Shown: positions 1-61,152 of the stretch, piece after piece | Numbering within the stretch: the first letter of the stretch is position 1 | Layout of the letters: each line of letters opens with the position of its first letter | Made by a program: the position numbers and the translations under genes | Notes under the pieces: generated by a model | Databases searched by the model: none | Told to the model about the DNA's origin: nothing | The model's input: only the letters and a program-made list of their open reading frames with translations | Assembly: GCA_043803015.1 (NCBI GenBank) | Contig: JAZDKK010000062.1 | Coordinates: 391-64,390 of the forward strand | Origin: Verrucomicrobiota bacterium | Lineage (GTDB): Bacteria > Verrucomicrobiota > Kiritimatiellia > CAIQIC01 > JAGNIJ01 | Reading direction: 5' to 3' | Length of the DNA: 64,000 bases

Positions 1-3000
1 TCGAAGGTCTTCCACTCCACCGTGCCGATCTCGCCCAGGAAGGCGGGTTTGTTGTACGCCTGGCGCAGGGTGCGGTGGTACTTCGAGACGGTCACGGGCG
101 GCGTGATCCAGTTGTACAGGTCGGCGTACGCGTGGATCTGCGGCACGTCCACGATCGGGAAGCCCTGGTCCCAGTACTCGTCCGTCGCATAGCTCGCCGT
201 CGTCGGATGGCCGAACGGGTCGTTGGTCTTGAAGTAGCTGTTGATGTACGTCAGCCACGGGATCGTGTAGTCGTTCCCGTCGCACTGGTTGGTGTCCATG
301 TTCAGGTAGGGGTTCTCGCCGAAGAGCGCGGACTTGTTGGTCACGTACAGCGGGTCCTGGTAGCGGATGCCGTTGGCCGAGTTGGCGAACGTGCCGAACA
401 TCTCGGAGACCAGCGCCCACACGCCGATCGCCTCGCTGTAGCCCCACCGCGCGATGATGTAGCGGTACAGCCGGTCCTGGTACTCCCGGTACGTCGAGTC
501 GTAGAAGAACTTCTGGTTCTTCGGCGGATCGTCCAGCTCGCTGAACGCGTTGACGTACCACTCCGGCTCGCTGAACTTGGTGCCGAACGCCTTGGCCCAG
601 CTCCCGTTCAGGCGCCACTTGTGGAAGTTGAAGTCGCGGATCGCGTCGTGCGGCCAGATCGTGAACGCCAGCTTCACGTTGTGCCGCTCGGCGTGGCCGA
701 GCACGCGGTCGACCTCGGCCGCGCGGTTCTGCTCGTACGTGTCGAACGACGACCGCTCGCGCCAGCTCTCCGTCGGGTCGGCGGGTTTGACGGTCAGCAA
801 GGTGTCCCACGGCGCCGACCACCAGTGGATCATGTTGATGCCGTGCTCCTCGCAGTTCGCGAAGAGGCCCTCGTCGTCGCCGTCCCAGGCGTGGCAGTAG
901 CCCCTGCCGAAGAACGGCGTATCGTCCGCGTGCTCGAAGTAGTGCGCGTCGTTGTCGGACACGCGGATCCAGCCGTGCCGGTCGCCGGCGACGCACGTGA
1001 AGTTCTGCACGGAGCTCGTGCTCGCGCCGAGGTGATTGCCCACGGTCACGCGGTAGCTCCACGAGCCGGCCTGGTTCGGCGCGAAGCGGATCCTCCACGT
1101 CCCGTTGCCCGGCGTGTCGCCCGGGCTTTCCATGTAGAAGCCGTTCACCTTGCACGCGGTGCCCGACGGCGAGGTGAACGTGGCGTTCAGGTCCACCATG
1201 TGCGGGTCGAACGGGTTCAGGCCCTGCACGTTGTTCAGGCCCACCGCCACCTCGTACTTCTGGTACCGGCCGACCGAGTTCGTCGCCGGCGTGATGGACG
1301 AGATCGAAGGCGCCGCCACCGGCCCCTTCGGCAGCACGTTGATCGAGTCGATCCCGACGCCCCCTTCCCAGATATCCCGGTTGGCCCAGACGATCTCCAG
1401 GCCCACTTCGTCGACATCCGTCAGGACCGCGGTCGGCAGGCCCGACAGGTCCCACGACAGCAGGTTCCACTGGCACGGCGTCAGGACGAATTCGGGGCTC
1501 ACGTGAGTGTAGACCCAGTTGTCCGAGGAGGAACGGACGTAGATCTTCACGCGGACCGCGTGGTGCGGGTTGGACGGCGCATCGCACGGCGCCCAGACGT
1601 AGGTCTGCAGGATCGGCCGGTAGAGGAGGTTCTCGTTCTCCACCAGGTCCCAGTCCTTCACGTAGAACTTGCCGTAGCCGGCGCCGTTGCTCGGCGTGAC
1701 CCACAACGCGCCCCCCGTCGGGTTGCCCAGGCCGTTCGTCCACTGGATCGTCGGCATGCCGAAGCTCCAGTCCTCACTCGTCCAGCTCTCCGTGTTCGTG
1801 CGGAACGAGTAGAGGTTCCTGCCCATCACGGGGAACGTGGCCGCGTCGATGTAGATCGGTCCGGTGTAGTCCGAGCCGGCGCCGCCGCGCTTGATGCGCG
1901 CGCCGATGGCGCGGATCTTCTGCGGGTTGAAGCCCGTGTCCGTCCAGACGCCCGGCCCGCCGTTCGTCAGGACGGTGAGCGTGAGCGTCATCCAGGAGTT
2001 CTCGACGATGTCGGACTCGCCGGCCCACTGCGCGAGCCATTGCGCGTCCTTCGCGTAGACCTGGACCTTGTTCGGGTTCGAGGTGCTGCCGCGGGAGCCG
2101 GTCGGACAGTACAGGCTGACCTGCAGCGGCTGGCCGTCGAGGTTGACCGGACCCTGGAGTCCCGCCGGCGGGTCGTACTCCATGTTCACCTCGGCGTCGC
2201 CGCGGTCGTACAGGTTGCTGCCGAAGATCTTCACCCACGCCTTCAGGCTGCTGTTGCTGTGGAGCGAGCGCTCCGTTGTGCGGACGACGCCCGTGATGCC
2301 GTAGCCGGCCCAGGACTGGTAGTTCGCGTACCAGCCTTCCAGCCCCGTCTCAAAGCTGTAGCGCATGTTGTCGAACGAGGTCCGCGTCACGGTCACGACG
2401 GCCTCCGCGCTGTCCGCGAGCCCGTCGTACGCCACGTACGAGAAGCTGTCCTCGCCGTTCCAGCCGAGCTGCGGCTTGTAGACCATGTTCGGCGGCGTGC
2501 CGAAGACCCAGCCGTGCTGCGGCTTCGTCTTGATCCGGTACGAGAGCGGGTCGCCGTTCGCGTCGGAGGCCACGAGCGTGAATGCCGTCGTATCGCCGTT
2601 CGGCTTGGCCACGATCCAGAGGTTGGACGCCACGGGGGCCGCGTTCGCCCGGTTCGTCGGGATGTTCCGCGCCGCCAGGCGGTCCGCATGCGCCTTGATC
2701 ACCGGGTTCACCGGGTCGTCCGCGTAGATCACGAACCCGTCGTCGCGCTTGATCTTCACGTTGTCCACGAAGACGTCGCCGTGGCCGGCCGGCAGGTCCT
2801 TGAACACGAGGGCAACCTGGCGGACGTCCTCCAGCACGTTGGAGGCCGGGCTCGGGATGTTGATCAGGTAGTTCGTCCTCGTGACGCCATTGCTGACCCA
2901 CACGTAGTGGCCGGCGCTCAGGTCGAACAGGACCCGGTTCCAGCCGGCCGTCAGGGCACTCGCCGCCCCTTCGCACCAGGTGAGGTCGGGGCCGCCGACC

Positions 3001-6000
3001 ACGGCGAGCGAAACCTTCAGCGTGTAGGCGTTCGGGTTGTAGAAGCTCCAGAAGAACTTGGTCCGGTTGATGCCGCGCGTCGGCGGGTCGTTCGTCAGGC
3101 TGTTGTCCACGCGCAGGACCCACGTCTCGTTGGTCGGGCACTTGAACAAGGCCTGGTTCGCGCCGTTCGTGCCGTACCAGGACATCTTCAGGGCGTTGGT
3201 CCCCTGAACGACGTGTTCGCCGGAGAGCACGATCGACGTCGCGCAGCCGCTGCCGGTTTCCGCGTACCACGGCGCCACCTGCTCGCCCGCGTGGAAGAAG
3301 TCTTCCCACATGCCCTGGAACCCGAAGTTCCAGAAGAAGGACCCGGAGATGCCCGAGTTCTCGATGTGGCCGTAGTACTGGCTGTAGATGTTCACCCGGT
3401 CCTGGAGCGTGTACTCCGGCGTGCGCGTGAGCTGCACCTGCCCGTAGGACCCGTTGAAGATCCAGCCGATGGCGTGGATGCCGAACTCCTCCAGGATCAT
3501 CGGCTTGCCGATCGTTTCGTGCGCGTCGTACCAATGATCGTTGATCCACTCGAAGCGTTGGTCAGCGCCGTTCTGGTTCGTGCGCCAGACGTTGTATTCC
3601 TTCTGGTCCACGTAGATGCGCGCGGTGCAGAAGTTGATGTTGGAATTGCCGGCCCGCCACTCCGAGTTGGTCGGCTGTTGGTTCGTGTAGAACCCGTCCT
3701 GCCACTGCACGAACGTGGCCAGCGTGTTGTTGTCGCTGAGAAAATCCACGCCGTGCCCGCGTCCGCACCCGTACAGGTCGCACGTCGAACTGCCGGTCCC
3801 GTACACCCCGTAGTGGTAGTAGTTGATCGGGTAATCTTCCCACGGGATCGTGTCGGCGAAGTCATACGTGTTGACGTAACCGCCCTCTTCGCCGTTCCCC
3901 AGGATGTGGTTGGCGTCGATCGTCCGCACCCAGTCGCTCTGGTCGTGCAGCCAGGTGTGGATCTTGCCGCCGCCGAAGTCCGACTCGCACCGCGGCTCGT
4001 TCACGATCTCCCACGCGAAGACCGTCGGGTCGTTCTTGTACACCACCCCCGTGATCGTGTTCGTCCGGTTCAACAGCTTCGTGACGTAGTCCCGGTACCA
4101 CTGCCGGCACCACTGGTTGGTCCAGAACTGGTCGTGGTACTCCACCCCCTCCTTGTTCAGGTTCGTGTTCACCGACTCCGGGTGCTCCCGGGTGGCCCAG
4201 TGGACGTACTGGAAGATGCCGCCGTTGTGCGCCCAGTTGTCGCAGAGGCCCAGCATCAGCCGGATGTTCCGGTGGCCCGCCTCCGCCACGATCCGGTCCA
4301 GGTGCTCGAACATCAGCTCGTTCCACACGCCGCGCTGCGGCTGGAAGCTGTAGGGTTTGCCTTCCTGCATCGCCCACGTGCGGATCACCTGCAGGTGGTT
4401 GCTCGACGCCCAGTCAAGGCACTGCCTCACGATCGCGTCGGGCTCGGTCTGCAGGTACTCGATGTTCGCGCCGCAGAAGTAGAAGTTCGTCCCGCCGACG
4501 ATGAACTTGGTCCCGTTGGGCTTCACGAACGCGCCCGCGAGCTTCACGTAATTGGTCCCGGTTTCCTTGCCGCCGACGACGAGGTCATCGATGAAGACCG
4601 CGCCGGTCCAGGCCGCGTTGGCGTAGACCTGGATGGCGACGAACCCGATCGCCTCGGTGTTCATCGGCCCCGCCGGCGAATTCGTCGCGTAGTCGAGCGG
4701 GTTGTCGAGGTCGAAGTCGAACGTGTTGTACCCGGCGCCGCCCGCGCCGAACTTCTTGAAGTACCACTGGTCCGTGATCTTGTCGTAGACATTGATCGAC
4801 ACCTCGAAGTTCAGCAGCCCCTCGACGGCCGGGTAGAAGCCGAGCCGGGCCTGGATCCTGCGGTGGTCCTTCGTGCTGAGGTTCAGGGCCGGCTGGTAGC
4901 CGATCTCGAACACGCCCTTGCGCAGGACGTCGTAGTTCGTCGTGACCACGCCATTGTTGGTGACCACCTCGTCCACGCCGAGCTGGAAGGCCGCGTTCGC
5001 GCCCAGCGCGACCGACCCGTTCACGCCCCAGTTGGTCCCGTAGTACACGCTGTTCCACGCCTTGGCGTGCCAACCCTCGGGGTTGGCGCCCCACTTCCAC
5101 CATGCCTGCTGGGAGTTGGCCTCCATGTCGTAGAGGTGCTGCGTGTTGTTCGTGATGGCCGGCGGCGGATCGCCCGGGAACATCACGGTGTCGGCGTAGA
5201 TCGGCCCCTGGTAGTTGCCGCCCATGGAATGGCGGTAGACGTTGATGCCGATGGAGATGATCTTGCGCGGGTTGAAGCCCGCGTTCGTCACCACCACCAG
5301 CGAAAGGGTCTGCGTGGTGGTGCCGAAGGGAATCGAGAGGTAGTTCGTCGCGTAGATCGAGTTCCAGTTCTCGTCCTTGGCGAACAGCTTGAGCTGGTGG
5401 TGAGCCCAGAGCTGGGAGTTGGTGCCGCTCGACCCCGCCGGGCACAGGACGCGCACCGTGACCGTCGCGCTGTTGAGGTCAACCGGGATCGGCGTCCGCG
5501 ACAGCGGCGGATAGTAGCGCATGTCCACCGACGATTCGCCCGTGTCCTGGCCCGCCGTGAGATTGCAGTCGATCTTCAGCGAGCGGTATCCCGTGTCCGC
5601 CCAGTTGGTGCTGTGCGAGGTGTTCGTCACCCCGCCCCAGGTGCCCCACCCTTCCTTGTTCGGCTCGAAGCCGTACTGCTCGTTGCCGTAACGGACGACC
5701 TCCCAGGTGCCCGTCGGGGCGGGATACGAAAACGCCACCACCCTGAACAGCGCGCTCGTCGAGATCGCGCTGTCTGCGTAGCCCGCCGCCCGCGCGAAGG
5801 CCCGCACGTTGTTGCTGTACGGCTGGAACAGCCCGATGCTGTTCCCGCTCGGGACCGACGGCGAATTCGTCGTCGGCGCCGTCCCGTTCGTCGCGTAGTA
5901 GATGGTCGAACCGGGGGTCGTCGAGCTCAAGGCCACGCTCACCGAGTTCGTAAACGTCCCGCCGTTCGGATTGTACGTCGGCGCCGCCGCCTGCGAAGAC

Positions 6001-10447: not shown

Positions 10448-10625
10448 CGCGGATCGGGCTGGCCGCCTCTTGGTTGTGGACGCATTCATCGGCCCTTCAC
10501 CTCTCTCGGTAACCTCCGCGGTTCTTTCGCGGCCGGCCACAACGACCTCCAGCGCGCCTGCCGCAACTGCAACTTCCTCAAGGTCTGCCCGAAGTGGACG
10601 CGCCAGCGCCTTCGCCCTCCGGGCT

Positions 10626-10658
10626 TCCGCCGTCGCCGACGGCTTCGGCGGACAAGTC
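10626..10658. repeat. REP-like hairpin module (TCCGCC-N15-GGCGGA followed by CAAGTC), in inverted orientation
   Basis: The reverse complement reads gacttgTCCGCCgaagccgtcggcgacGGCGGAag. This matches the module gacttgTCCGCCgtagccttggcgaaGGCGGAag in the element at 11896..12010. A degenerate copy of the CCCCTCC region follows at about 10700..10725. Confidence 0.5.
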
Positions 10659-10733
10659 GGCGAGGCAGGCAAGATGCCCATGCGGAGAGCCTCCGGTCCC
10701 CGCGTCCTCCCTCTTTGGGGCTGATCACGGGAA

Positions 10734-10785
10734 CTTGACAATACTTCCACGTCGTACTTGACAATTACCTGACAATAAGTATTGT
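10734..10785 (+). promoter_or_regulatory. Upstream copy of a 40-bp module (CTTGACAAT-N14-CTTGACAAT-N2-CCTGAC), overlapping a putative TTGACA-N16-TATTGT promoter
   Basis: CTTGACAAT starts at 10734 and 10757 (23-bp spacing), and CCTGAC is at 10768. TTGACA (10758..10763) is 16 nt from TATTGT (10780..10785). Only 6 nt separate the -10 box from ATG 10792 and there is no Shine-Dalgarno sequence, so the mRNA may be leaderless. Confidence 0.45.
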
Positions 10786-10791
10786 GGCGAC

Positions 10792-11835
10792 ATGAAGGCC
10801 AGCCAATCGATTCTCGCCCGCCTCCGCCGGGGCCCCGCCAGCGGGTCCGGGCTGGCCCGGGCGCTTGGCGTGTCGCGCCAGGCCGTCCACGAACACCTGA
10901 AAGCGCTGTCCGGACACGGGCTGATCGTCAAGGAGGGGGTGACGCGCGGCGCCCGATACCGGATCGCCGGCCGAAGGGAGCAAGGAAGCGCCGTCCGCAC
11001 GGTCAGGCGGCTTCTCGATCTTCACGGCCTGGAAGAGGACCGCGTGTTCGACGAGATCAGCACGGCCCTGGGGCTGGCGCGCCGGACGGGGGAGCGCGCG
11101 CAGGAGATTGCCCAGTACGCCTTTTCGGAGCTGCTCAACAACGCCATCGAGCATTCGCGGTCGCCGAAGGGCCTGGTCGAGGCCCGACTCGACCCCTACG
11201 CCTGCTCCTTCGTGATCCGCGACTATGGAATCGGCGTATTCCAGTCCATGGCCGCGAAGTTCATGCTCCAGGATGAGAGCGCAGCGCTGTTCGAGATCCT
11301 GAAGGGCAAGCGGACCACGGCACCGGAGAGGCACAGCGGCGAGGGCATCTTCTTCACCTCCAAGGCGGTGGATCGCATCCTGTTTCGCTCCCACCGCCTC
11401 CGGCTGGAGATTGACAACCTGCACCCCGACGTCGTCGTCGAGGAGGCGCGTCTTCTCAAGGGCACCGAGGTCCGCTTCTTCGTGGCGCGACACGCAAGGC
11501 GGCGCCTGGGAGACGTCTTCGCGAAGTTCGCGCCGGAGGAATTCGACTTCCGCTTCGAGAAGACGCGCGTCCTGGTTCGCCTTCTCGGGAACGACTACGT
11601 ATCGCGCTCGGAAGCCCGGAGGCTCCTGGCCGGGCTGGACCGGTTCAAGGAGATCGAGCTCGATTTCGAGGGCGTGCAGCGACTGGGCCAGGGGTTTGCG
11701 GACGAGATCTTCCGCGTCTTCCGGCGCGCCCATCCGGGGATCGCCCTCCGCGCGGTCAACGTCCGCCCGCCGCTCCAGGCGATGATCCGGCACAGCCTTG
11801 ACAATACTGTTTCATCTAGCTTGACAATATCCTGA
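10792..11835 (+). CDS. Fusion protein: winged-HTH + GHKL/HATPase_c (RsbW/SpoIIAB-like) + C-terminal STAS-like DUF4325 domain
   Basis: HTH: ILARLRRGPASGSGLARALGVSRQAVHEHLKALSGHGLIVKEG. ATPase N-box ELLNNAIEHS, G1 box IRDYGIGV, G2 box HSGEGIFF. The C-terminus LDFEGVQRLGQGFADEIFRVFRRAHPG is typical of DUF4325. 347 aa. Confidence 0.8.
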   Translation: MKASQSILARLRRGPASGSGLARALGVSRQAVHEHLKALSGHGLIVKEGVTRGARYRIAGRREQGSAVRTVRRLLDLHGLEEDRVFDEISTALGLARRTGERAQEIAQYAFSELLNNAIEHSRSPKGLVEARLDPYACSFVIRDYGIGVFQSMAAKFMLQDESAALFEILKGKRTTAPERHSGEGIFFTSKAVDRILFRSHRLRLEIDNLHPDVVVEEARLLKGTEVRFFVARHARRRLGDVFAKFAPEEFDFRFEKTRVLVRLLGNDYVSRSEARRLLAGLDRFKEIELDFEGVQRLGQGFADEIFRVFRRAHPGIALRAVNVRPPLQAMIRHSLDNTVSSSLTIS

Positions 11836-11836
11836 C
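11797..11836 (+). repeat. Downstream copy of the 40-bp CTTGACAAT-N14-CTTGACAAT-N2-CCTGAC module
   Basis: CTTGACAAT starts at 11797 and 11820 (23-bp spacing) and CCTGAC is at 11831, the same internal spacing as the upstream copy. It overlaps the last codons and the stop of the 10792..11835 gene. Confidence 0.6.
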
Positions 11837-11895: not shown

Positions 11896-12010
11896 ACCCA
11901 CCCCTCCCGTCCCCTCCGGGGAGCGGACGCCGATGTGCCGGTCCCCTCCCTCGGAGGGGTGCCCGACTTGTCCGCCGTAGCCTTGGCGAAGGCGGAAGGG
12001 CGGGGTGGGT
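11896..12010 (+). repeat. REP/MITE-like element, copy A (115 bp): 9-bp terminal inverted repeats ACCCACCCC / GGGGTGGGT, a CCCCTCC-N3-GGAGGGG hairpin, and a GTAG-containing hairpin module
   Basis: The 5' end acccacccctcccgtcccctccg is identical in copies A, B and C. Hairpin cccctccctcggagggg; module gacttgtccgccGTAGccttggcgaaggcgga; 3' end ggggtgggt. Confidence 0.8.
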
Positions 12011-12912: not shown

Positions 12913-12958
12913 GGATCGCGTTGCCCCCAACGCGATCCGCGCGATGAGGGCATCGCGC
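12913..12958 (+). terminator. Two consecutive GC-rich hairpins downstream of the nitrilase-family gene, followed by a T7 run at 12982..12988
   Basis: GGATCGCGTTG-cccc-CAACGCGATCC (12913..12938) and GCGCGATG-aggg-CATCGCGC (12939..12958). The T-run is not directly adjacent, so this is not a textbook intrinsic terminator. Confidence 0.35.
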
Positions 12959-12986
12959 GCCACCAAGCCCGCCCGGCCCCGTTTTT

Positions 12987-13032
12987 TTCCAAACGTTGGA
13001 AGTTTTCCCCGCCGATTTTCCAAGCCTTGGAA
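12987..13032. repeat. Pair of TTCCAA-N3-TTGGAA palindromes with starts 31 bp apart
   Basis: TTCCAAacgTTGGAA (12987..13001) and TTCCAAgccTTGGAA (13018..13032). The second extends to the 23-bp palindrome GATTTTCCAAgccTTGGAAAATC. The pair ends 10 bp from the stop of the 13042..14991 gene. Confidence 0.6.
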
Positions 13033-13041
13033 AATCGGGTC

Positions 13042-14991
13042 CTACCGCTCCACGCCGACGCGGTAGAAGCGGTAGAGGGCCGGGGCTGCGGGATCGGTGT
13101 ACGTGTTCTCCGGCGGAGTGGCCGGAATGTTGGTGGCTAGCGGCCAAAACTCGGCAACAGGCACCAGGTTGCTTCCGCGGCCGACGGCATACCACCGATT
13201 CGTCACGCTGAGCCACCGGACCAGCACGTCTCGGTTCGTGCTTCGCCCGGTCCACTTCACCCGGAAGAACGATGACCCGAGCACCGGGTCCGTTCCCGCC
13301 CACACTTCATCCCCGTCGCCTTGTGTATCGCCGTCGGTATCCGGGTTCGTCCAGTCCGTGCCGTACTTCGCCCGCTCATCGTAATCGCTGAGCCCGTCGG
13401 AATCGGCATCCGCCCACGGATTCCCATGTTCGTAGCAGCCCATGTCGAACTCTGCCGTGCCGCTGTTGTTGCCGTCGAGCGGCCGCTCCGTCCCCTCGAG
13501 GTCGTTCGTGATCCCGAAGGCCGCCAGGTTCGTGCCGGTGTCGATGCAGGGCGAGTTGGTCAGCAGGTGGTAGTTGCCCGCCGCGGCGTTCACGAACTGT
13601 GGATCATTCGTGATGTTACCGGTGCCGCCGGGATCGGTGGATGTGCAGCTATACGAAAAGCCAGAACCAGCCCAATTGAAGCACTGGTTGAAGTAGCTGA
13701 TCACGTTCACAACGGCGCTGTTGCTGTAGGCTTCAACGCCCGCGACGGACGGGGGAGGCTCGCACGTGTTGCTGGCCACCGTCGAGTTCTGCAGCACACT
13801 GTTCTCGCAATGGACTCCTCCGTTGAGGTCGTCGACCACCAGGCAGTTGACCGCGCGGCTCGCGCCGGCGAGACCCAAGCCGCCGCCCGTGCCCGAAAAC
13901 GCGACGGAGAATGCGAACCGCCTGAGCGCACCGTTTCCTCTTATGCTGCAATCCCTCACGCTGCACTGGTTGACCGCGTAGACTCCGCCCCCGCAGCAAT
14001 CACCCCATGGCGGGGTTCCTGGTCCAGTTGCCCCTCCAGCCATGGTCGAGTTGCTGACGACCGAGCAACTCGTGACGGCGGACGTGTTGCAGGCATAGAC
14101 TCCGCCGCCGAGCCCATCGCCGCCACTCCCCGTGCCCGTCGCGCCCCCGCCCGGTCCGTCGGCGTTCTGCCCGTACGCCGTGTTGTTGGAGACAGCACAG
14201 GTCTCTAGGCGGCTTCCGTTGGACAGATAGACTCCGCCGCCGAACCCGCTGCCACCGTCAAGCTTACTCGACGTGCTGGCGTAGCCTGCGGCGCCGCCAT
14301 TCCCGCTGTTGCCCCTGATCGTGCAGAGCCTCACAACGCTCGAATTGTCGGCGAACACCCCGCCCCCGTGGCCGTCCCCGCCGTTTCCTCCAGGTGTGGC
14401 CCACATCGGGTCCCCCCCGCCGTACCCTCCGTTGGCGGTGTTGCCCGCCACGTCACAGCGCTCCACGAAACTGCCATGATCGCAGTAGACCCCGCCGCCG
14501 TACCCCGGATCGCCGTGATCGCCATAGTAGGCCCAATTCTCGCCATTGGCTGAGTTGCTGACGATCAGGCAATTCCGAACTGCCGACCCGTGATCGGCGA
14601 AAACGCCGCCTCCTCCGCTGGTGTTGCGTCCGTGCGTGACGGTGAAGCCGTCGATCAGCGCATTCGAATGGTTCAGGTAGAAGCAGCGATTCGACCAACT
14701 TCCGTCCACGGTCGTGTGCGCCGCGCCCCAGGCGCTCCGAACGGTTGCGCCGTTCGTGACTACGACCTGGGTGAAAACCCGATAGTACCCGTCGGTGACC
14801 ACGACGCTCTCTCCCTCCGTCGCCGCGTTGATCGCCTGCTGGATGTTCGTCGCAGCCGTCACCCAGTTGGTGTACGGCGGAACGGGGTTCGTGGAGGCGA
14901 GGTCAACGTAATGAGTGTCGGCAGAGGCAAGGCCCAGGAAGAGCGGCAAGAACAGCAGACCCAACGACCACCTGACAGCCCGTGTGTGCAT
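13042..14991 (-). CDS. Secreted right-handed beta-helix protein with thrombospondin-type-3-like Asp-rich repeats and a conserved C-terminal domain ending YRFYRVGVER
   Basis: I prefer the start at internal ATG 14991 (MHTRAVRWSLGLLFLPLFLGLASA signal peptide) over the track start at 15087. It has GGG(V/I)(Y/F)-type parallel beta-helix repeats. DADSDGLSDYDE...NPDTDGDTQGDGDE is calcium-binding-like. It is a paralog of 15118..16473. Confidence 0.8.
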   Translation of the reverse strand: MHTRAVRWSLGLLFLPLFLGLASADTHYVDLASTNPVPPYTNWVTAATNIQQAINAATEGESVVVTDGYYRVFTQVVVTNGATVRSAWGAAHTTVDGSWSNRCFYLNHSNALIDGFTVTHGRNTSGGGGVFADHGSAVRNCLIVSNSANGENWAYYGDHGDPGYGGGVYCDHGSFVERCDVAGNTANGGYGGGDPMWATPGGNGGDGHGGGVFADNSSVVRLCTIRGNSGNGGAAGYASTSSKLDGGSGFGGGVYLSNGSRLETCAVSNNTAYGQNADGPGGGATGTGSGGDGLGGGVYACNTSAVTSCSVVSNSTMAGGATGPGTPPWGDCCGGGVYAVNQCSVRDCSIRGNGALRRFAFSVAFSGTGGGLGLAGASRAVNCLVVDDLNGGVHCENSVLQNSTVASNTCEPPPSVAGVEAYSNSAVVNVISYFNQCFNWAGSGFSYSCTSTDPGGTGNITNDPQFVNAAAGNYHLLTNSPCIDTGTNLAAFGITNDLEGTERPLDGNNSGTAEFDMGCYEHGNPWADADSDGLSDYDERAKYGTDWTNPDTDGDTQGDGDEVWAGTDPVLGSSFFRVKWTGRSTNRDVLVRWLSVTNRWYAVGRGSNLVPVAEFWPLATNIPATPPENTYTDPAAPALYRFYRVGVER

Positions 14992-15061
14992 CCGCGCTCC
15001 CATTCCCCATTTCCATCGTACCCCCCCCGCCCGGCCGAAGAAAGCATGCAAAGCCGCGTTC

Positions 15062-15107
15062 TTCCAATCCTTGGAAAAACGGCCCAATAAACTTCCAATG
15101 TTTGGAA
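15062..15107. repeat. Second pair of TTCCAA-N3-TTGGAA palindromes with starts 31 bp apart
   Basis: TTCCAAtccTTGGAA (15062..15076) and (C)TTCCAAtgtTTGGAA(G) (15093..15107). The pair ends 11 bp from the stop of the 15118..16473 gene and lies upstream of the 14991 start. Confidence 0.6.
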
Positions 15108-15117
15108 GAATCCGGCG

Positions 15118-16473
15118 CTACCGCTGCACGCCCACGCGGTAGAAGCGGTACGCGGCGCCGACCACGTCCGTGTAGGTGTTCTCGGGCGGGCTGCTGGTGA
15201 CGTTGTTCGCCAGTGCGTAGAAGTTGGTGCCCCAAACCAGGTTGGTGGAGCGCAGCACGGTGTACTGTCGGTTGCTGATGCTGGGCCAGCGGACCAGCAG
15301 GCCGGTGTTGGTGGACAGGGCCGCCGAGGCGACGCGGAAGTAGGACGACGCGGCCAGCGGATCCGTCCCGGCCCACGTCTCATCGCCGTCGCGCTGGGTG
15401 TCGCCGTCGCAGTCCGGGTTCTTGGGGTTCGTGCCGTACACGTTCACCTCCGCCCCGTCCGTCAGGCCGTCGGCGTCCGCGTCCGTGTTCGTGCCGGCGA
15501 ATTCGAAGCAGCCCATGTCGTAGTTCGTGGAGCCGTCGGCGTCGCCGTCGAGTGGGCGCGGCACGCCGTCCAAGTCCTCCGGCAGACCGACCACGGACCA
15601 CGCCGTATCGATGCACGGCGATCCCTGGGCCAGGTGGAAGTTCCCGCTGGCCGTGTTCACGAACGCCGGGTTGCTGGCAATGTTGCCCGGCGCGATGATC
15701 AAGGGGGCCATGCAGGAGTAGGCGTAGACCCAGTCCGGGCCGGTGTTGAAGTAGTTGGAATCCGCGCCCCCCGAATTGTGGTAGATGATCGAGTTGCGCG
15801 AGGTGGCGGCGTTGTTGCAGTAGATGCCCCCGCCCTGGGCGGCGGTGTTGCTGCTGACCGTGCAGTGCTGGATCGTCCCGCCGCTCTCGAAGAAGACTCC
15901 CCCGCCCTGACCCGCCCAGTTGTCAACGACCAGGCAGTTCTGAAGGGTCCCGCCGTGGTACAGGTAGGCCCCGCCCCCGAAGGCCGGGGACCCGAAGAAC
16001 TTGGCCTGGTTGCTCTGGATGATGCAGTTCCGGACCACGCTGCCCGGCCAGCAGTAAACCCCGCCCCCGAAGCCGAAAGAGAGGGCGGCGTAGTCGGCGT
16101 TTCCGTTCCTGAGGGTAAACCCATCCACCACCGCGTTCGAATGATAGACGTAGAAGCAGCGGTCGGTGCCGCCGGCATCCACGATGGTGTGGGCAGCGCC
16201 GTTGACGCTCTGCACCGTGACGGCGCTGAAGAGCTGGAGCTCGGTCGTGATGCGGTACGTCCCGTTGCTCACCAGCACCAGGTCGCCGTTGGCCGCGAAC
16301 GCCAGCGCCTGCTGGATGTTCGTGGCCGCGATCGTCCACATCGTGTAGGGCGGCGACGGGATCGGGTTGTCCACCCTCACGTAGTAGGTGGTGCCGGCGG
16401 CCGCGGGCAGAGGAAGGGCCCGCCACGCGAGGCACGCGAGGGCCGCGCCGATGAGGAACCTGCGCCCGCTCAT
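15118..16473 (-). CDS. Secreted right-handed beta-helix protein, paralog of 13042..14991, with C-terminus YRFYRVGVQR
   Basis: Signal MSGRRFLIGAALACLAWRALPLPAAA. Beta-helix repeats (GGGVYC, GGGAYL, GGGVFF, GGGIYC). DADADGLTDGAE...NPDCDGDTQRDGDE. A GAAGGA ribosome-binding site lies upstream of the ATG. Confidence 0.85.
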   Translation of the reverse strand: MSGRRFLIGAALACLAWRALPLPAAAGTTYYVRVDNPIPSPPYTMWTIAATNIQQALAFAANGDLVLVSNGTYRITTELQLFSAVTVQSVNGAAHTIVDAGGTDRCFYVYHSNAVVDGFTLRNGNADYAALSFGFGGGVYCWPGSVVRNCIIQSNQAKFFGSPAFGGGAYLYHGGTLQNCLVVDNWAGQGGGVFFESGGTIQHCTVSSNTAAQGGGIYCNNAATSRNSIIYHNSGGADSNYFNTGPDWVYAYSCMAPLIIAPGNIASNPAFVNTASGNFHLAQGSPCIDTAWSVVGLPEDLDGVPRPLDGDADGSTNYDMGCFEFAGTNTDADADGLTDGAEVNVYGTNPKNPDCDGDTQRDGDETWAGTDPLAASSYFRVASAALSTNTGLLVRWPSISNRQYTVLRSTNLVWGTNFYALANNVTSSPPENTYTDVVGAAYRFYRVGVQR

Positions 16474-16613: not shown

Positions 16614-19502
16614 ATGCTCAGACCGAAACACTTGCTGGTGCTCGGCTTTCTCGTCTTCTCATCCTGCCTCGTTTTTGCTGAGCCACCACCCCTCACCCCG
16701 GATCTCCGCGCCGTGCCCGGCGAGCAGGCCACGCCCTGGCTCAGGTACCAGAACCCCGCGGCGACCAGCGTGATGGCAGCCGGATCCTGGGACGGCTGGG
16801 CCGGCCGGTACCCGATGGATAAGTCGAACGGGGTCTGGGTCCTCGACGCCCGCGTCTTCGGCGCCGCGTTCGGCCAGCACGAGTTCAAGTTCCTGCCCAA
16901 CAACGACTGGGAGGCCGGCCCGAACCGCCCGATCTACATCAACGGTGAGGGCGAGCTGGAGCGGCCATCGGACCTCATCTTCAGCGCGGCCATCGAGGCG
17001 CCGAACGAGATCGTCGTCTGGTTGCGGCGCGGCGTGTCCGCGAATGCGCCGCTGAAGGCCCGCCTCGTGCCGGAGACGCCGATCAAGGAATTGCGCTTCT
17101 CCTCGGGCCTGGAGGCCGGCGCCCTGCAGGGCTGCTTCATCGCGGGCGGGCCCGCCCGCATCGCTACGCGAAGCGTTGCGGGCGGGCTGTTCACGGTCGT
17201 GTTCGATGAGAAGACCTACGGCCTGAACCTCGAACCGGCGGCGGACCGCGTCGTCGCCGCGGGCAACTTCAACGGCTGGGACTCCAGCGGGGGCAACGGG
17301 CGCTGGCTCCTCAAGGACGACAACAACGACGGCATTTGGGAGCTGACTACCCAGCTGGCGGGGCTCCGCCAGCCGGCCGACGAGAAGGACCTTCTCTTCA
17401 AGTTCGTGATCAATGGGAACCGATGGCTGCCGCCTCCTCCGGGTGCGCTCAATGCCACGGCGGACGGCAAGGGCAACGTCAACCTGAAGATCGACCCGCA
17501 GTCCGGCGGCGGGACCAGCCTGAAGGTCGTCACCGAGAACCCCCTGGTCCTGTCACAGTCGTATGTCATTGTGCTGGAAGGTGTTGCGGATCGCCCGATC
17601 TGGTCCACGGTCACGCCCGGCGAGATCATGGAGGACCTGAAGTCCGCCAAGCAGCTGGGCGCGATCCTCGACCGGGAGCACCGCTGCACGACGTACCGGC
17701 TTTTCGCCCCGCGCGCGCGGAGCGTCCACCTCTGCCTCTTCGACACGCCGCAGTACGAGGTCCGCCAGCCCGAGTTCCGCCGCGTGGAGCCGGTCGAGCG
17801 CTACCCGCTGTGGAAGGACGAGCAGGACGGCGTCTGGGAGATCTCGCTCCTGGGGCTGGACGTCGGGAAGTACTACTCGTTCAACGTGGACGGCCCGGCG
17901 GGAAACGGCGAGGGCTTTGAACCCCTCGCGCAGATCGGAGATCCGTACGCGCGGGCCGCCGCCCACTCCCAGAACAACACCATCGTGGTGGACCCCGACG
18001 AAACCAACGCGTGGTTCGGCGGTTGGTCGGACGATTCGTACGTGGCGGTCGCACCCCAGGATGCGGTCATCTACGAGATGCACATCCGGGACCTGACGGT
18101 CCATCCGTCTGCCGGCGTGCCGCCGGAGGATGCCGGCAAGTACGAGGGCCTGATCGCCACGGAAGCCGCGGGCACGGGCCTCGGCTACCTCAAGGACCTC
18201 GGCGTCACGACCCTCGAGATCATGCCGATGGCGGAGTTCTCGAACGGCGAGGACGAGTACAACTGGGGCTACGCGCCGGTGTTCTATTTCGCGCCCGAGG
18301 CGTCCTACGCCAAGCGCCCCCTGAAGGGCTCGCAATACTTTGAATTCAAACGACTTGTGAACGAGCTCCACCGGATGGGCTTCGGCGTAATCCTCGACGT
18401 GGTCTTCAACCACGTCGGGTCGCCGAACATCTTCCACCTGATGGACAAGAAGTACTTCTTCCGGCTGAACCCGGATTTCTCGTACAGCAATTTCAGCGGG
18501 TGCGGGAACGATTTCAAGACCGAGTCCCCGATGGCGCGCCGGCTGATCGTGGACAACATCGTGTACTGGATGAAGGAGTTCCACGTGGACGGGTTCCGCT
18601 TCGACCTGGCGGAGCTGATCGACATGGACACGATGCTCGCGCTCCGCGACGCGGCGCGCGCGGTGAACACGAACGTGATCCTGGTCTCCGAGCCGTGGAG
18701 TTTCCGGGGCGAGAACAAGCACCAGCTCAAGGGCACCGGGTGGTCCGCGTGGAACAACGACTTCCGCTACGCGGCGAAGGACTTCGTCATGGGCCGACGC
18801 AACCGGGAGTGGCTGCAGAAGAACATCTTCGGGTCCGTGGACACGTGGGCATCCGACCCGCTGCAGCCGGTCAACTACCTCGAGAGCCACGACGACATGG
18901 CCCTGGCGGACGAGCTCTGCACGCGGCCGGACCGCGACGGGCGGAGCCTCCAGGACATGGACGTGGCCGTGAACCGGCTGGCCGCGACGGTGCTGTTCAC
19001 GTCGCTGGGCATCCCGATGATCTCGGAGGGGCAGGAGTTCATCCGGAGCAAGTGGGGATTGGGGAACACGTACAACAAGGGCGACGAGGTGAACGCCATC
19101 CGCTGGACGGACCGCGAACGGCCGAAGGCGGCCGAGGCCCTGGCGTACTACAAGGGCCTGATCCAGCTCCGCCGGAGCCCGCAGGGCGCAGCGTTCCGTG
19201 TGGCGAAGCGTCCGCCGGCAAGCTATTACCAATGGATCCTGCCGCCCGATGCCCAGACGCTGGCCTACATCGTGAACGCGCCGCGCATCCACGACGGCAG
19301 CGGCTTCGTCGTCCTGCTGAACGCGAGCGGAACGACGTTTACCTTCACCGTTCCCCTGCCCGCCGGCCGCTGGCGTTTGATTGGCGACGGCGAGCGGATC
19401 GATCCGGCCGGCCTCCCGGACACGCCCGTCGCCGAAGGCCCGCAACAGATGACGATCCAGGTCCCCGGCCTCCGCGCGTTCATCCTGATGGACGGGTTCT
19501 AA
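16614..19502 (+). CDS. Pullulanase / glycogen-debranching type GH13 enzyme with N-terminal glycogen-binding (CBM48/AMPK-beta-like) modules
   Basis: GH13 conserved regions: VILDVVFNHVG, DGFRFDLAELID, LVSEPWS, NYLESHDD, plus YNWGYAPVFYFAPEASYA. I prefer the start at ATG 16614 (MLRPKHLLVLGFLVFSSCLVFA signal) over the track start at 16578. Confidence 0.88.
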   Translation: MLRPKHLLVLGFLVFSSCLVFAEPPPLTPDLRAVPGEQATPWLRYQNPAATSVMAAGSWDGWAGRYPMDKSNGVWVLDARVFGAAFGQHEFKFLPNNDWEAGPNRPIYINGEGELERPSDLIFSAAIEAPNEIVVWLRRGVSANAPLKARLVPETPIKELRFSSGLEAGALQGCFIAGGPARIATRSVAGGLFTVVFDEKTYGLNLEPAADRVVAAGNFNGWDSSGGNGRWLLKDDNNDGIWELTTQLAGLRQPADEKDLLFKFVINGNRWLPPPPGALNATADGKGNVNLKIDPQSGGGTSLKVVTENPLVLSQSYVIVLEGVADRPIWSTVTPGEIMEDLKSAKQLGAILDREHRCTTYRLFAPRARSVHLCLFDTPQYEVRQPEFRRVEPVERYPLWKDEQDGVWEISLLGLDVGKYYSFNVDGPAGNGEGFEPLAQIGDPYARAAAHSQNNTIVVDPDETNAWFGGWSDDSYVAVAPQDAVIYEMHIRDLTVHPSAGVPPEDAGKYEGLIATEAAGTGLGYLKDLGVTTLEIMPMAEFSNGEDEYNWGYAPVFYFAPEASYAKRPLKGSQYFEFKRLVNELHRMGFGVILDVVFNHVGSPNIFHLMDKKYFFRLNPDFSYSNFSGCGNDFKTESPMARRLIVDNIVYWMKEFHVDGFRFDLAELIDMDTMLALRDAARAVNTNVILVSEPWSFRGENKHQLKGTGWSAWNNDFRYAAKDFVMGRRNREWLQKNIFGSVDTWASDPLQPVNYLESHDDMALADELCTRPDRDGRSLQDMDVAVNRLAATVLFTSLGIPMISEGQEFIRSKWGLGNTYNKGDEVNAIRWTDRERPKAAEALAYYKGLIQLRRSPQGAAFRVAKRPPASYYQWILPPDAQTLAYIVNAPRIHDGSGFVVLLNASGTTFTFTVPLPAGRWRLIGDGERIDPAGLPDTPVAEGPQQMTIQVPGLRAFILMDGF

Positions 19503-19987
19503 CCCACCCCTCCCGTCCCCTCCGTTGGAGGGGACACCCGTTTCCTCATCCCCTCCTCCGGAGGGGCTTGTCTCGGCGAAGCTCGTAGAGCGAAGCCGGA
19601 TGGCCGCAGGCCGGGGTGGGTTCTCTGCCGTTCCTCAATCCAGTCCCTGATCCGTTGGAGTACCGCCTGACGATCCTCCTTCACTTCACAATCCCAGAAG
19701 CGAAGAACACGGACACCCAGCGACTCGAGTGCCTGTTGCCGATCCAGGTCCTGCTCTTCCTTCAGGTTGTGGCTCCATCCGTCCACCTCGATGGCCAGCT
19801 GCAGATCCTTGCAGTAGAAATCCACAATGAATCCGCCAATCGGCCGCTGCCGGTCGAAATCGTATCCGCACAGCTTCCGGCCCTTGATCTCCTTCCAGAG
19901 AAGAACTTCCGCGAGGGTCATGTGGGCGCGAAGTTCGCGCGCGCGTTCTACGAGGAATGGAGCATATGGAATGATCCGGCGCCTCAC
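19499..19987 (-). CDS. DUF559 (Vsr-like endonuclease fold) domain protein, with its C-terminal tail read through the REP-like element
   Basis: ARELRAHMTLAEVLLWKEIKGRKLCGYDFDRQRPIGGFIVDFYCKDLQLAIEVDGWSH matches the DUF559 pattern. GTG start at 19987. The last 40 or so aa (RTHPGLRPSG...PTEGTGGVG) are encoded by element copy B and are probably not native. Confidence 0.75.
   Translation of the reverse strand: MRRRIIPYAPFLVERARELRAHMTLAEVLLWKEIKGRKLCGYDFDRQRPIGGFIVDFYCKDLQLAIEVDGWSHNLKEEQDLDRQQALESLGVRVLRFWDCEVKEDRQAVLQRIRDWIEERQRTHPGLRPSGFALRASPRQAPPEEGMRKRVSPPTEGTGGVG
19502..19621 (+). repeat. REP/MITE-like element, copy B (120 bp)
   Basis: acccacccctcccgtcccctccgttggagggg ... cccctcctccggagggg ... 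ctcGTAGagcgaagccgg ... ggggtgggt. It starts on the last base of the pullulanase TAA stop. It also encodes the C-terminal tail of the DUF559 ORF on the opposite strand. Confidence 0.8.
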
Positions 19988-20060
19988 ATCCTTAGGAAGG
20001 TTTGACCGAAGGCTTTTTCCGGATCTTTCTTCGTGCTGGTGAAAGAAAGGGCCGTAAGGA

Positions 20061-20143
20061 ACCCACCCCTCCCGTCCCCTCCGGTGGAGGGGACCCCCCG
20101 ATTCCGTCCCCTCCTCTGGAGGGGTGCCGGAGGCGGGGTGGGT
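20061..20143 (+). repeat. REP/MITE-like element, copy C (83 bp, lacks the GTAG module)
   Basis: acccacccctcccgtcccctccggtggagggg ... cccctcctctggagggg ... ggggtgggt. Its last base overlaps the TGA stop (20145..20143) of the DUF11 gene. Confidence 0.8.
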
Positions 20144-21273
20144 CAGCGCATCCCCACCTTCACCCGGTACACGCGGCCGCCGTTGGGCGGCGGACCGCCC
20201 GTGGTGTTAACGCTCTCGTTGTCCAGGAAGACGTGGTTCGTCGGGTTCAGCGCGGTTTCGATCCACACGCCGTAGTTCGTGTTGGCGAACGCGGACCACG
20301 GCGCGTTGTTCGAGAGCCTCTGATCGGTGAAGTACATGGTGTACTTCCGGTTCGGCACGGTCCAGACCGTGACCTGGTGGTTCGACTGGCCCTGCGGCGT
20401 CACCACGCTCCGCACGCGGAAGACCGAGGTCGAGCTGGCCGGCTCCGTGCCGGAAACATACTCGAAGTAGTTGTTCGCGCCGTCGCCGTCGTAGTCGCCC
20501 GTCGGCGTGTTGGTCAGCGACCCTAGCTTGGTCCACTCCCAGCCGTCGCCCATGCCGTCCGTGTCCCAGTCGAAGGGGACCATGATGGTCGTGGTGTTCG
20601 TCGTGATGCTGTTGGTCTCGCCCTGCTGGTCGTTGGCGACGAAGACCACGAGGTTGGTCGTGTTCGTGGCGCTGGCCGGCGCCGTCCACGTGAAGTTCGT
20701 GCCGTCGAACGTGGAGCCCGAGGGCTTGGTGGGGTTGGTGAGGAGCACCGGGTCGCGGTTGTTGTCCGTCACCTCCACGACGAAACTCGTCGTGGCCCCG
20801 ACGGGCAGGACAAAGGGGCCCGGCGGGTTGAACGTGATCACCGGCGCGTGGTTGACCTGGAGCACCGTGGTCGTCGTCGCGGTGCGGTCGTTGCCCGTTT
20901 GCGTGTCGCCCGTGATGCTGACGTCGTTCGTGATGGTCCCGTCGAGGGTCGGCGAGACGACGATGGTGACGGCGGCCGTGGCCCCCTTGGACAGGTTGCC
21001 GAGGTTGCAGGTCACGATATCGGCCACCTGGCTGTACGTCCCCTGGCTGAGCGAGCACGACACGAAGTTCGCCGCGGCCGGCATGACGTCCGTGACGACC
21101 GCGTTCGTCACCGTGTCGGGGCCGACGTTCGTGACGGCGATGGCATAGGTCAGGTTCTTGCCAACCCTCACCGGGTCCGGGCTGTCCGCGACGCTGATCA
21201 GCGCGTCCGACGTGGCCGGGCACACCCCTCGCGAGAGGAGCACCAGCATGGCTATGGAAAGGAGTTTCTTCAT
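20143..21273 (-). CDS. Secreted DUF11 (conserved repeat domain) protein with an Ig-like middle region and a C-terminal domain ending RVYRVKVGMR
   Basis: I prefer the start at ATG 21273 (MKKLLSIAMLVLLSRGVCPA signal). DUF11 signature: VGKNLTYAIAVTNVGPDTVTNAVVTDVMP. Its ATG overlaps the TGA of the upstream giant gene (ATGA at 21273..21270). Confidence 0.8.
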   Translation of the reverse strand: MKKLLSIAMLVLLSRGVCPATSDALISVADSPDPVRVGKNLTYAIAVTNVGPDTVTNAVVTDVMPAAANFVSCSLSQGTYSQVADIVTCNLGNLSKGATAAVTIVVSPTLDGTITNDVSITGDTQTGNDRTATTTTVLQVNHAPVITFNPPGPFVLPVGATTSFVVEVTDNNRDPVLLTNPTKPSGSTFDGTNFTWTAPASATNTTNLVVFVANDQQGETNSITTNTTTIMVPFDWDTDGMGDGWEWTKLGSLTNTPTGDYDGDGANNYFEYVSGTEPASSTSVFRVRSVVTPQGQSNHQVTVWTVPNRKYTMYFTDQRLSNNAPWSAFANTNYGVWIETALNPTNHVFLDNESVNTTGGPPPNGGRVYRVKVGMR

Positions 21274-51977: not shown

Positions 51978-52035
51978 CGTCTCTGTAGCGGCGACCAGGG
52001 CTTCTGCGGACAGGCCGGTCGCCGACTAACCAACC

Positions 52036-52078
52036 CGTCGGTCAGACTTGTCCGCCGGTCGTTTGGCGGAGACCGACG
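52036..52078. terminator. Nested hairpin between convergent genes, containing the REP-like gacttgTCCGCC...GGCGGA module
   Basis: Outer stem CGTCGGTC / GACCGACG and inner stem TCCGCC-ggtcgttt-GGCGGA. It abuts the stop of the 52079..54694 gene. Confidence 0.45.
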
Positions 52079-60373: not shown

Positions 60374-60417
60374 TTCTGCCGTGTGGATTACGTTGTTATT
60401 CCCGCTCTCCTTGATGC

Positions 60418-61077
60418 TCACCACCGCCTTCCCCGCTTCGCCTTGTGCCGCCCTCCCTTCGCCTCTAACCCTTTCACGAACCCCCGGCTGCCAAGCACGC
60501 GTTGCTGCCTCATCTCCCTCATCTGCGTGTCGATTTCCGTGCTCATGAGCGCGTCGCCGTAGAGCTTGCGGTCTCGGGGTGTGATCTCGTCGAATCCCAG
60601 ATGCGTGTTGGCGTCGGTGACCCCGTCTTGCTCGCCCGCGACGTAGAACCGTGCGCTGGACCAAGGGTATTCCCAGGCGCAGGACGCGATGCCCGCTCTG
60701 ACGGGGTTGCGCTCGATGTACCGGCCGCAGCACGCCAAGTAGTCGCCTATCTCAACTGGCTCGCTCCTGTACCGGCCCTGCCAGAACACTCCCGACGTGC
60801 CGTGGCGGGCGTGGTGGTACTGTGCGTAGGCCTGCTGGAAACCTCCCACGAAACTCCGTAGCCTCTGGAACGGCACCTCGATCAGAAGGTGGTAGTGGGT
60901 TTCCATCCATGCCCAGTGGAAGATTCGTACGCCGCACATGCGCTTGTACTTCCGGACCGCCTTGATGAGAAAGTCTCTGTCATGTTCATCGCGAAAGATG
61001 GGTTGCCGATTGATCCCGCGGTTGAACACGTGATAACAGAGGGCCGTCTGCTGATGTGTTCTGGCTATCCTTGGCAT
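60418..61077 (-). CDS. HUH/Y1 transposase-like protein (IS200-like, REP-associated tyrosine transposase RayT family)
   Basis: HUH motif in WMETHYHLLIEV, and the catalytic-Tyr helix CCGRYIERNPVRAG. 219 aa. I saw no terminal inverted repeats or tnpB next to it. Confidence 0.82.
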   Translation of the reverse strand: MPRIARTHQQTALCYHVFNRGINRQPIFRDEHDRDFLIKAVRKYKRMCGVRIFHWAWMETHYHLLIEVPFQRLRSFVGGFQQAYAQYHHARHGTSGVFWQGRYRSEPVEIGDYLACCGRYIERNPVRAGIASCAWEYPWSSARFYVAGEQDGVTDANTHLGFDEITPRDRKLYGDALMSTEIDTQMREMRQQRVLGSRGFVKGLEAKGGRHKAKRGRRW

Positions 61078-61152
61078 TGGCTCAGCTCCTGATCGCAGTC
61101 AGTTATTCGGTTCGGGAATTACAACGTAACATGTTCTAGTGGAAGAAGTTAT

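Follow-up and report, generated by a model that had tools for sequence, protein, structure and literature searches.

In a 64,000-nucleotide stretch of a Verrucomicrobiota bacterium genome (GenBank assembly GCA_043803015.1, contig JAZDKK010000062.1, positions 391 to 64,390; hereafter the window), we analysed a family of three short palindromic elements, copies A, B and C, of which B and C bracket a small gene encoding a DUF559 endonuclease. The physical association between this repeat family and a clade of DUF559 genes is tight, recurrent and crosses phyla. A sequence-only reading of the window had assigned the elements to a RayT-like transposase gene lying 40 kb away. Because B and C bracket the DUF559 gene and this arrangement recurs in distantly related bacteria, the nuclease is the likely partner of the repeats, rather than the transposase. 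On balance, we favour the view that the elements form a family resembling repetitive extragenic palindromes (REPs) and their inverted doublets (REPINs), whose cognate gene encodes a PD-(D/E)XK nuclease of the Vsr/EDxHD fold. This would parallel the pairing of REPINs with REP-associated tyrosine transposases (RAYTs), with another enzyme in the place of the transposase.

The three elements are located at 11896..12010 (copy A), 19502..19621 (copy B) and 20061..20143 (copy C), all on the plus strand, which corresponds to 3 copies per 64 kb, counted in the window only. As the sequence-only reading had noticed, they share an identical 23-nt 5′ end: the 23-mer ACCCACCCCTCCCGTCCCCTCCG occurs exactly three times, at 11896, 19502 and 20061, always on the plus strand. 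Allowing up to three mismatches added no further match in the window, and none was expected (100 shuffles). The 9-bp terminal inverted repeats ACCCACCCC/GGGGTGGGT were likewise present in A, B and C, and on the plus strand of the window GGGGTGGGT is found only at the element ends (12002, 19613 and 20135). Furthermore, B and C each carry the two proposed CCCCTCC-N3-GGAGGGG hairpins, and the first hairpin of copy A is indeed degenerate (GTCCCCTCCGGGGAGCGGAC, 11909-11928). When the spacer was relaxed to two to six nucleotides, this hairpin was found five times in the window, every time within one of the elements, with an expectation of 0.01. On either strand, the folding of all three copies is much better than that of shuffled sequences (z = -3.3 to -5.2), and in the minimum-free-energy folds the 9-bp ends form the closing stem.

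All copies that we compared are built from the same basic unit, composed of the 9-nt head ACCCACCCC, a short linker and the 7-bp hairpin CCCCTCC-N2-3-GGAGGGG, that is, ACCCACCCC-linker-CCCCTCCNNNGGAGGGG. The linker is usually a mini-hairpin (for instance GCCTCCGGC, GGCCTGCGGCC or GCCCTGCGGGC) and otherwise TCCCGT or TAA(AT). A full element consists of two such units (head...hairpin-hairpin...tail), and since these stand inverted to each other, the ends pair as 9-bp terminal inverted repeats. An optional small hairpin, TCCGCC...GGCGGA, here called module 3, may sit inside the mini-hairpin loop. With a size of about 30-45 nt and a 7-bp CCCCTCC/GGAGGGG stem, the unit agrees with the description of a REP as a 20-40-nt imperfect palindrome, and two inverted units with a short spacer that form one long hairpin agree with that of a REPIN. 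The linker mini-hairpin covaries across copies and genomes: 97.6% of the alignment cells are paired, two of four pairs are compensatory, and none of 500 shuffles reached the observed score. The unit is thus under structural constraint, and this constraint is found together with solo doublets and with reading of an open reading frame (ORF) into the repeat, both described below.

Copy A is a solo doublet. Its head ACCCACCCC (11896-11904) precedes the degenerate hairpin, which is followed by the second hairpin CCCCTCCCTCGGAGGGG (11943-11959), a nested module-3 hairpin TCCGCC-N14-GGCGGA (11971-11996) and the tail GGGGTGGGT (12002-12010), all on the plus strand. Copy B, the doublet downstream of the DUF559 gene, comprises a head (19502-19510), hairpins at 19517-19533 and 19550-19566, a diverged module-3 hairpin (19573-19600), the mini-hairpin GGCCGCAGGCC (19602-19612) and a tail (19613-19621). 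Copy C, a minimal doublet upstream of this gene, has its head at 20061-20069, hairpins at 20076-20092 and 20108-20124, the mini-hairpin linker GCCGGAGGC and its tail at 20135-20143. The extra module of copy A had also been reported on its own and inverted, and it does occur as a solo hairpin GACTTGTCCGCC...GGCGGA on the minus strand at 10624..10660, within the intergenic region 10448-10791 (37 nt, 89% identity to 11963-11998, E = 4e-4). For a further copy proposed near 52036..52078 we found the hairpin (GACTTGTCCGCC-N8-GGCGGA, 52045..52070, plus strand, between convergent stops at 51988 and 52079), but its similarity is weak (a 13-nt exact match, E about 0.06-0.1), so that it is listed here as possibly module-3-like. 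As a separate observation on the shared 5′ end, its complement GGAGGGGACGGGAGGGGTGGGT (minus strand of 19502-19524, 20061-20083 and 11896-11918) contains four G-tracts separated by loops of 1-2 nt; this is a canonical G-quadruplex motif, and it lies on the coding strand of DUF559.

The elements had been described as inserted exactly at stop codons, which holds for two of them. The first base of copy B is the last A of the TAA of a pullulanase-like gene (19500-19502), and the last base of copy C belongs to the stop codon of a DUF11 gene (TCA/TGA, 20143-20145, minus strand). Copy A departs from this pattern. It starts 60 nt past the stop (11835) of a gene encoding HTH, HATPase and DUF4325 domains (10792-11835) and ends 13 nt short of the ATG (12024) of a CN_hydrolase gene. 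Neither a target-site duplication nor a common flanking target was found around the three copies, whose flanks read GGGGTG|..|AGAGAG (A), GTTCTA|..|TCTCTG (B) and TAAGGA|..|CAGCGC (C). The proposed designation as a REP/MITE-like family therefore stands in part: these are dispersed, structured palindromic repeats of a modular REP/REPIN-like build that also recalls bacterial interspersed mosaic elements (BIMEs). They have the terminal inverted repeats of miniature inverted-repeat transposable elements (MITEs), but classical MITEs are not supported, as no target-site duplication was found, and DUF559, the one gene that has the same ends on its two sides, belongs to no known transposase family.

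That gene, overlooked in the sequence-only reading, which had correctly placed the stop-codon junctions on both sides of the B-C interval, is a minus-strand ORF of 162 aa (19499..19987) that matches Pfam DUF559 (PF04480; Vsr-fold, PD-(D/E)XK) with E = 2e-32 and 111.7 bits, against a curated cutoff of 20.6. The conserved domain covers residues 1-122 (19622-19987). There is no stop codon at the end of the domain, and the frame runs on through all of copy B. The last 40 codons (residues 123-162, THPGLRPSG...GTGGVG) are the minus-strand translation of this copy. Copy C and the GTG start are separated by a 73-nt spacer (19988..20060, minus strand), in which AAGGA immediately precedes the start and no sigma-70-like promoter was found. 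The segment running from C over DUF559 to B (20143 down to 19502) exactly fills the space between two convergent stop codons and is one cassette.

The encoded protein has a bona fide nuclease fold according to structural modelling, and nuclease activity is predicted. In the AF2 model, the core (residues 1-123) has a pLDDT above 90, and the tail, with a pLDDT of about 50, is predicted to be disordered. The D/E/K/H columns are conserved in the alignment of homologues. The closest structure is PDB 3HRL (E = 1e-17; Foldseek TM 0.90), the uncharacterised DUF559 protein NGO0050 of Neisseria gonorrhoeae, followed in the Foldseek ranking by the homing endonuclease I-Bth0305I (3R3P, E = 2e-4, TM 0.67 on target) and Vsr (1VSR, TM 0.53).

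Reading of the ORF into the repeat is not limited to the window. Among the 120 best homologues, 86 have a tail of at least 8 aa, and a peptide motif derived from the translated hairpin, P[SPL]x1-2[EGR]G, is present in 76 of these 86 tails, a count that may be inflated, as the query contained the tail, and that a core-only search corrects only in part. This motif is absent from all 120 core domains, and its density is 3.77 per 100 aa in the tails compared to 0.065 in 120 pullulanase homologues, used as a control from similar organisms. The tails start with THP, PTP or PPxP, which are the three reading frames of ACCCACCCC. The frame of the junction thus varies, and the tail is not under coding selection. 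We repeated the search with the core alone against 1.84 billion representatives, which yielded 21,734 clusters (50% identity) at E<=1e-3. Among 137 top representatives with a complete domain end, 87 were tailed, and the same motif was found in 44 of these tails; many other tails show AT-richer variants such as PFKKGE, PLLEKGE and PLERGG.

DUF559 homologues whose C-terminal tails resemble translated repeats led us to loci outside the window, where the repeats were then confirmed in the DNA. In total, we compared seven independent loci of the same subfamily (the window, L011, L012, L014, L021, L031 and L033), with 60-68% amino acid identity and a genomic GC content between 40 and 66% (65% for the window). 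In all seven, GGGGTGGGY and a hairpin lie just upstream of the gene, with the tail GGGGTGGGY facing the gene start, and a head ACCCACCCC with its hairpin abuts the end of the DUF559 domain. At L012 (GC 66%), elements of the same type on both sides form 125-nt direct repeats (121/125 identical), an additional unit carries a module 3 nearly identical to that of copy A, and a tandem array of units is present at 2992-3187. L014 (GC 59%) has 131-nt direct repeats (122/131 identical) and a further copy, a solo doublet, at the other end of the contig. At L021 (GC 57%), on a 7.2-Mb contig, doublets flank the gene on both sides and a solo doublet lies 2.4 kb away (12933-13042); the same locus is present on three more contigs of 0.47-5.7 Mb (L022-L024). 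L011 and L031 (GC 49-54%) combine an upstream doublet or half-doublet with a single downstream unit. The minimal form is found at L033, with hairpin-TTA-GGGGTGGGT upstream and ACCCACCCC-TT-hairpin downstream; here, the GC-rich repeat motifs are kept despite a GC content of 40%. Many homologue contigs are only 0.5-1.5 kb long or are broken at the repeat, as expected for multi-copy flanks. Beside the solo doublet of L021, two of the four assemblies also have a DDE_5 insertion sequence (13118-14473, compared with L023/L024) within the second repeat unit.

More distant DUF559 genes (38-48% identity), collected by a core-only tblastn search against plasmid records, have flanking repeats of other types. 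For instance, those of Picosynechococcus and Pseudanabaena are flanked by CCCCTAA / TCCCC-N5-GGGGA / TTAGGGG, and those of Synechocystis by CTCACCCC/CCCCTCTCC and by CTCACCCC with CCCCCTCTCC. On a plasmid of Deinococcus psychrotolerans (L027, 298327-298849), the DUF559 gene lies within a perfect inverted repeat of about 45 nt between paaD and paaZ, and this unit inside the phenylacetate operon looks like a discrete insertion. The DUF559 gene of N. gonorrhoeae is accompanied by direct repeats of about 60 nt. Judged from these few sequences, the repeat type appears to change with the nuclease clade, as would be expected of cognate pairs.

The RayT-like gene named in the sequence-only reading (60418-61077) is a genuine Y1_Tnp (Pfam)/RAYT-like ORF with HUH (HYH) and Tyr motifs. 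If it mobilised the elements in trans, these would be GTAG-type REPs or REPINs, and their palindromic, extragenic, REPIN-like doublet form as well as the GTAG in A and B would fit such a role. However, this 4-mer, taken in the sequence-only reading as the hallmark of a REP, occurs in the module-3 loops of A and B at chance level. It does not stand next to the conserved stem, and copy C lacks it. What the elements have as a conserved tag is ACCCACCCC, and they show no unpaired GTAG or CGTC tag at the end of a stem. With 64.5 bits against NCBIfam REP_Tyr_transpos, the gene stays under the cutoff of 80, and it is not placed between inverted copies of these repeats. Its flanks carry perfect inverted repeats of their own (21 nt and 17 nt) that are found at no other place in the window and bear no relation to A, B and C, and no element motif was found near the gene in the window. 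Di Nocera et al. 2013 (PMC3733652) described RAYT-like genes with long terminal inverted repeats on their flanks as a class, into which the present gene falls. Moreover, the six outside loci with the same repeats adjoin DUF559, and no called gene in the 2-20 kb of DNA available per locus (L011, L012, L014, L021, L031 and L033) matched Y1_Tnp. Mobilisation by the RayT-like gene is therefore not supported and is the least probable of the accounts considered here, although the genome may have a second RAYT elsewhere. Apart from this question, the gene (minus strand) lies between gcvT (61153-62256) and a PMT-family glycosyltransferase gene (ATG at 60373) in the region 60350-61167. Its 21-nt repeats overlap codons 2-8 of the latter and the last codons and stop of gcvT, so that the same 21 nt code for two different gene ends in opposite orientations.

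A role of the elements purely as host cis-elements, such as terminators, mRNA stabilisers or structural DNA sites whose link to DUF559 reflects regulation and not mobility, is also very unlikely in our view. In general, REPs have been described at positions downstream of ORFs, and a function as RNA elements is assumed for them (PMC3733652); the location of our elements at gene 3′ ends and their very stable folds on both strands would agree with this. The strong folding that the sequence-only reading led one to look for was found, but T-tailed terminators were not: the stems are not followed by a T-tract, and the elements contained no site scored as terminator-like. In addition, the orientation relative to the upstream gene is not consistent among the elements, copy C being antisense to DUF11, and such a role leaves unexplained why identical motifs stand on both sides of one gene family in unrelated phyla. 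A more serious alternative, to which we still give a clearly minor share of the probability, is that the repeats are an independent REP/MITE-like family and that DUF559 is a homing-type selfish gene which uses them as a safe insertion or recognition site and spreads only itself. The DUF559 fold includes the proven homing endonuclease I-Bth0305I, the position of the gene relative to head and tail is always the same, and solo units without a nearby gene exist. The gene-less junction GGGGTGGGT/ACCCACCCC is a perfect palindrome and would be a plausible site for a dimeric nuclease. What homing leaves unexplained is the near base-for-base conservation of non-coding motifs across genomes of 40-66% GC, as well as the change of repeat type with the DUF559 subfamily, unless repeats and gene travel together, in which case it merges with the cognate-pair interpretation that we favour.

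Several observations weigh against that interpretation. Copies B and C differ internally, module 3 being present in B and absent from C. In all assemblies seen of two species, the cassette occupies one fixed locus (4 strains, L021-L024; 16 contigs, P0230), which argues against frequent transposition and suggests a vertically kept, persistent relationship like that of RAYTs. The arrangement differs among loci, with direct doublets, inverted single units with heads inward and, in distant subfamilies, heads outward, and no single transposition geometry accounts for all of them. To these come the tail-containing query behind the homologue counts, E. coli ycjD, a DUF559 gene for which no shared flanks were found, and units in Chitinibacter that carry the identical 22-mer with no DUF559 gene within 8 kb. 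In the synteny partners L009 and L010 (pullulanase identity 72-74%), the pullulanase gene is followed neither by the elements nor by DUF559; both partners are too far removed for an empty site to be defined from them. The pullulanase homologues of the window gene are annotated as Kiritimatiellia, Lentisphaerae or Verrucomicrobia. As further observations on E. coli, ycjD is present at the sapF-ycjD-fabI locus (L028 / L041) in 3372 of 5426 complete genomes. Strains lacking it have different genes beside sapF, e.g. an MFS efflux pump, and offer no clean empty site. Part of the 3′ end of ycjD is duplicated downstream, and a 41-nt intergenic piece is repeated elsewhere in the genome.

We also searched for the exact 5′ end in other genomes. 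Scanning genomes with exact 21/22-mers returned only four matches, in Chitinibacter and in one metagenome-assembled genome of the Eubacteriales. The corresponding metagenome scan gave three C-rich chance matches and one match of the Chitinibacter type, and none was found in viral contigs. Judged by these matches, the exact 5′ end appears to be lineage-specific, and the exact identity of such a low-complexity 22-mer is weak evidence on its own. The Eubacteriales genome carries a unit of the form head-TCCCGT-hairpin. In Chitinibacter, the head-TCCCGT-hairpin unit ACCCACCCCTCCCGTCCCCTCCTTGAGGGG forms the 3′ portion of a repeat about 150 nt long, which we located in Chitinibacter tainanensis and a metagenome relative (L002 5440-5610; L003 3190-3020, minus strand; L004 1550-1720; L007 5440-5605). 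A single conserved RNA gene common to the window and Chitinibacter was considered and set aside, the Chitinibacter unit being part of this longer, small-RNA-like repeat. The 150-nt repeat shows a compensatory stem change (CTCGGC/GCCGAG versus CCCGGC/GCCGGG), has terminators downstream and gave only weak anti-hemB matches in Rfam (E about 0.03); it may represent a family of sibling small RNAs. For our own elements, Rfam searches of the whole window at the gathering threshold, and of the elements and outside loci in E-value mode, returned no credible family and only microRNA and small-RNA noise, and six-frame translations of the elements used as protein queries had no matches.

Two further kinds of repeats were observed in the neighbourhood of copy A. 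Direct repeats of the form CTTGACAATA-N13-CTTGACAAT are present as two pairs, one (10734-10773) just upstream of the HTH, HATPase and DUF4325 gene and one (11797-11836) overlapping its 3′ end. These pairs resemble operators or promoters and may be sites for the HTH protein that the gene encodes. On the other side, the minus-strand ORFs 13042-15087 and 15118-16473 are joined by a 62-nt inverted repeat (76%; 12976-13037 / 15057-15118) and share a 108-nt direct repeat (75%; 13259-13366 / 15332-15439), which probably are paralogous gene segments.

If DUF559 is the cognate nuclease of the repeats, it would recognise the head-plus-hairpin unit and cut at or near it, and repair of the break or recombination between repeat copies would then spread, duplicate or delete material. 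The repeat-gene-repeat order could arise when a copy bearing the gene recombines with a solo doublet, and recombination between the two flanking direct repeats could remove the gene and leave a solo doublet like copy A. With no stop of its own at the domain end, translation would enter the downstream repeat in whatever frame the junction has. Effects on the host, for instance of hairpins in 3′ untranslated regions, would be secondary, and roles as terminators or mRNA stabilisers possible by-products.

Few non-coding repeats are as common in bacteria as REP and REPIN elements, and to our knowledge the Y1/HUH transposases of the RAYT family are the only enzymes so far tied to them. There are many 'untagged' palindromic repeat families without a known partner, a point explicitly raised as an open question by Di Nocera et al. 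2013 (PMC3733652). Like the REPIN-RAYT systems (Nunvar 2010; Bertels & Rainey 2011, PMC3116915; Ton-Hoang 2012; Di Nocera 2013, PMC3733652), our family is made up of short extragenic palindromes, each with an unpaired, conserved tag at one of its ends, in which inverted unit pairs form a longer hairpin and a small nuclease gene lies between its own repeats. Moreover, the gene is apparently confined to a single locus and fixed within species, and the repeats are found between convergent or co-directional genes. In contrast, the tag is ACCCACCCC instead of GTAG or CGTC, the gene encodes a PD-(D/E)XK (DUF559/Vsr-fold) nuclease instead of an HUH Y1 transposase, its ORF enters the repeat, and nearly the same motifs are shared by several phyla, whereas a REP family is as a rule restricted to one lineage. 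With the BIMEs of E. coli, which are mosaics of REP variants and linkers, the elements share a modular build with alternative linkers, an optional nested module and tandem arrays as at L012; they are, however, unrelated in sequence, and another associated protein is to be expected. They resemble bacterial MITEs (Correia/NEMIS, RUP and ERIC) in a length of 80-150 bp, terminal inverted repeats, strong secondary structure, insertion beside ORFs and a capacity to provide or change stop codons and C-terminal codons, but lack the target-site duplication and a DDE-transposase parent, DUF559 being the sole linked gene.

The catalytic fold, and the fact that a small nuclease is encoded by selfish DNA, connect DUF559 to Vsr and to EDxHD/Vsr-fold homing endonucleases such as I-Bth0305I (3R3P; Taylor et al. 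2011, PMC3239194). Unlike these, the DUF559 gene is free-standing and palindrome-flanked and lies outside any group I intron or intein. Integron cassettes, with an ORF and an attC site, are similar in that a short ORF is followed at once by an imperfect inverted repeat of 60-140 bp at or overlapping the stop codon, and in the repeat-gene-repeat order. However, our elements end in ACCCACCCC/GGGGTGGGT and lack R''/R' core sites (GTTRRRY), one and the same gene is always the cargo, and no IntI integrase was found among the genes scanned around the three elements. A description of DUF559 or Vsr proteins with flanking repeats, REPs, MITEs or REPINs was not found in the literature that we searched, within which the association appears to be undescribed; papers outside it could hold one.

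More generally, and more tentatively than for the family itself, small free-standing DUF559 endonucleases may constitute a second, phylum-spanning class of repeat-associated nucleases, in which each clade co-evolves with a head-plus-hairpin palindromic family of its own, recognising it and either propagating or maintaining it. As regards annotation, the last 40 codons of the DUF559 gene in the window are repeat read-through outside the conserved domain, and if the cognate pairing is true, the proline/glycine-rich C-terminal tails of annotated 'endonuclease domain-containing proteins' would likewise be read-through into a repeat. It would also offer a simple in vitro system, composed of a 122-aa protein and a 35-nt hairpin unit, and the large DUF559 domain family of unknown function, with its 21,734 clusters, would gain a testable role.

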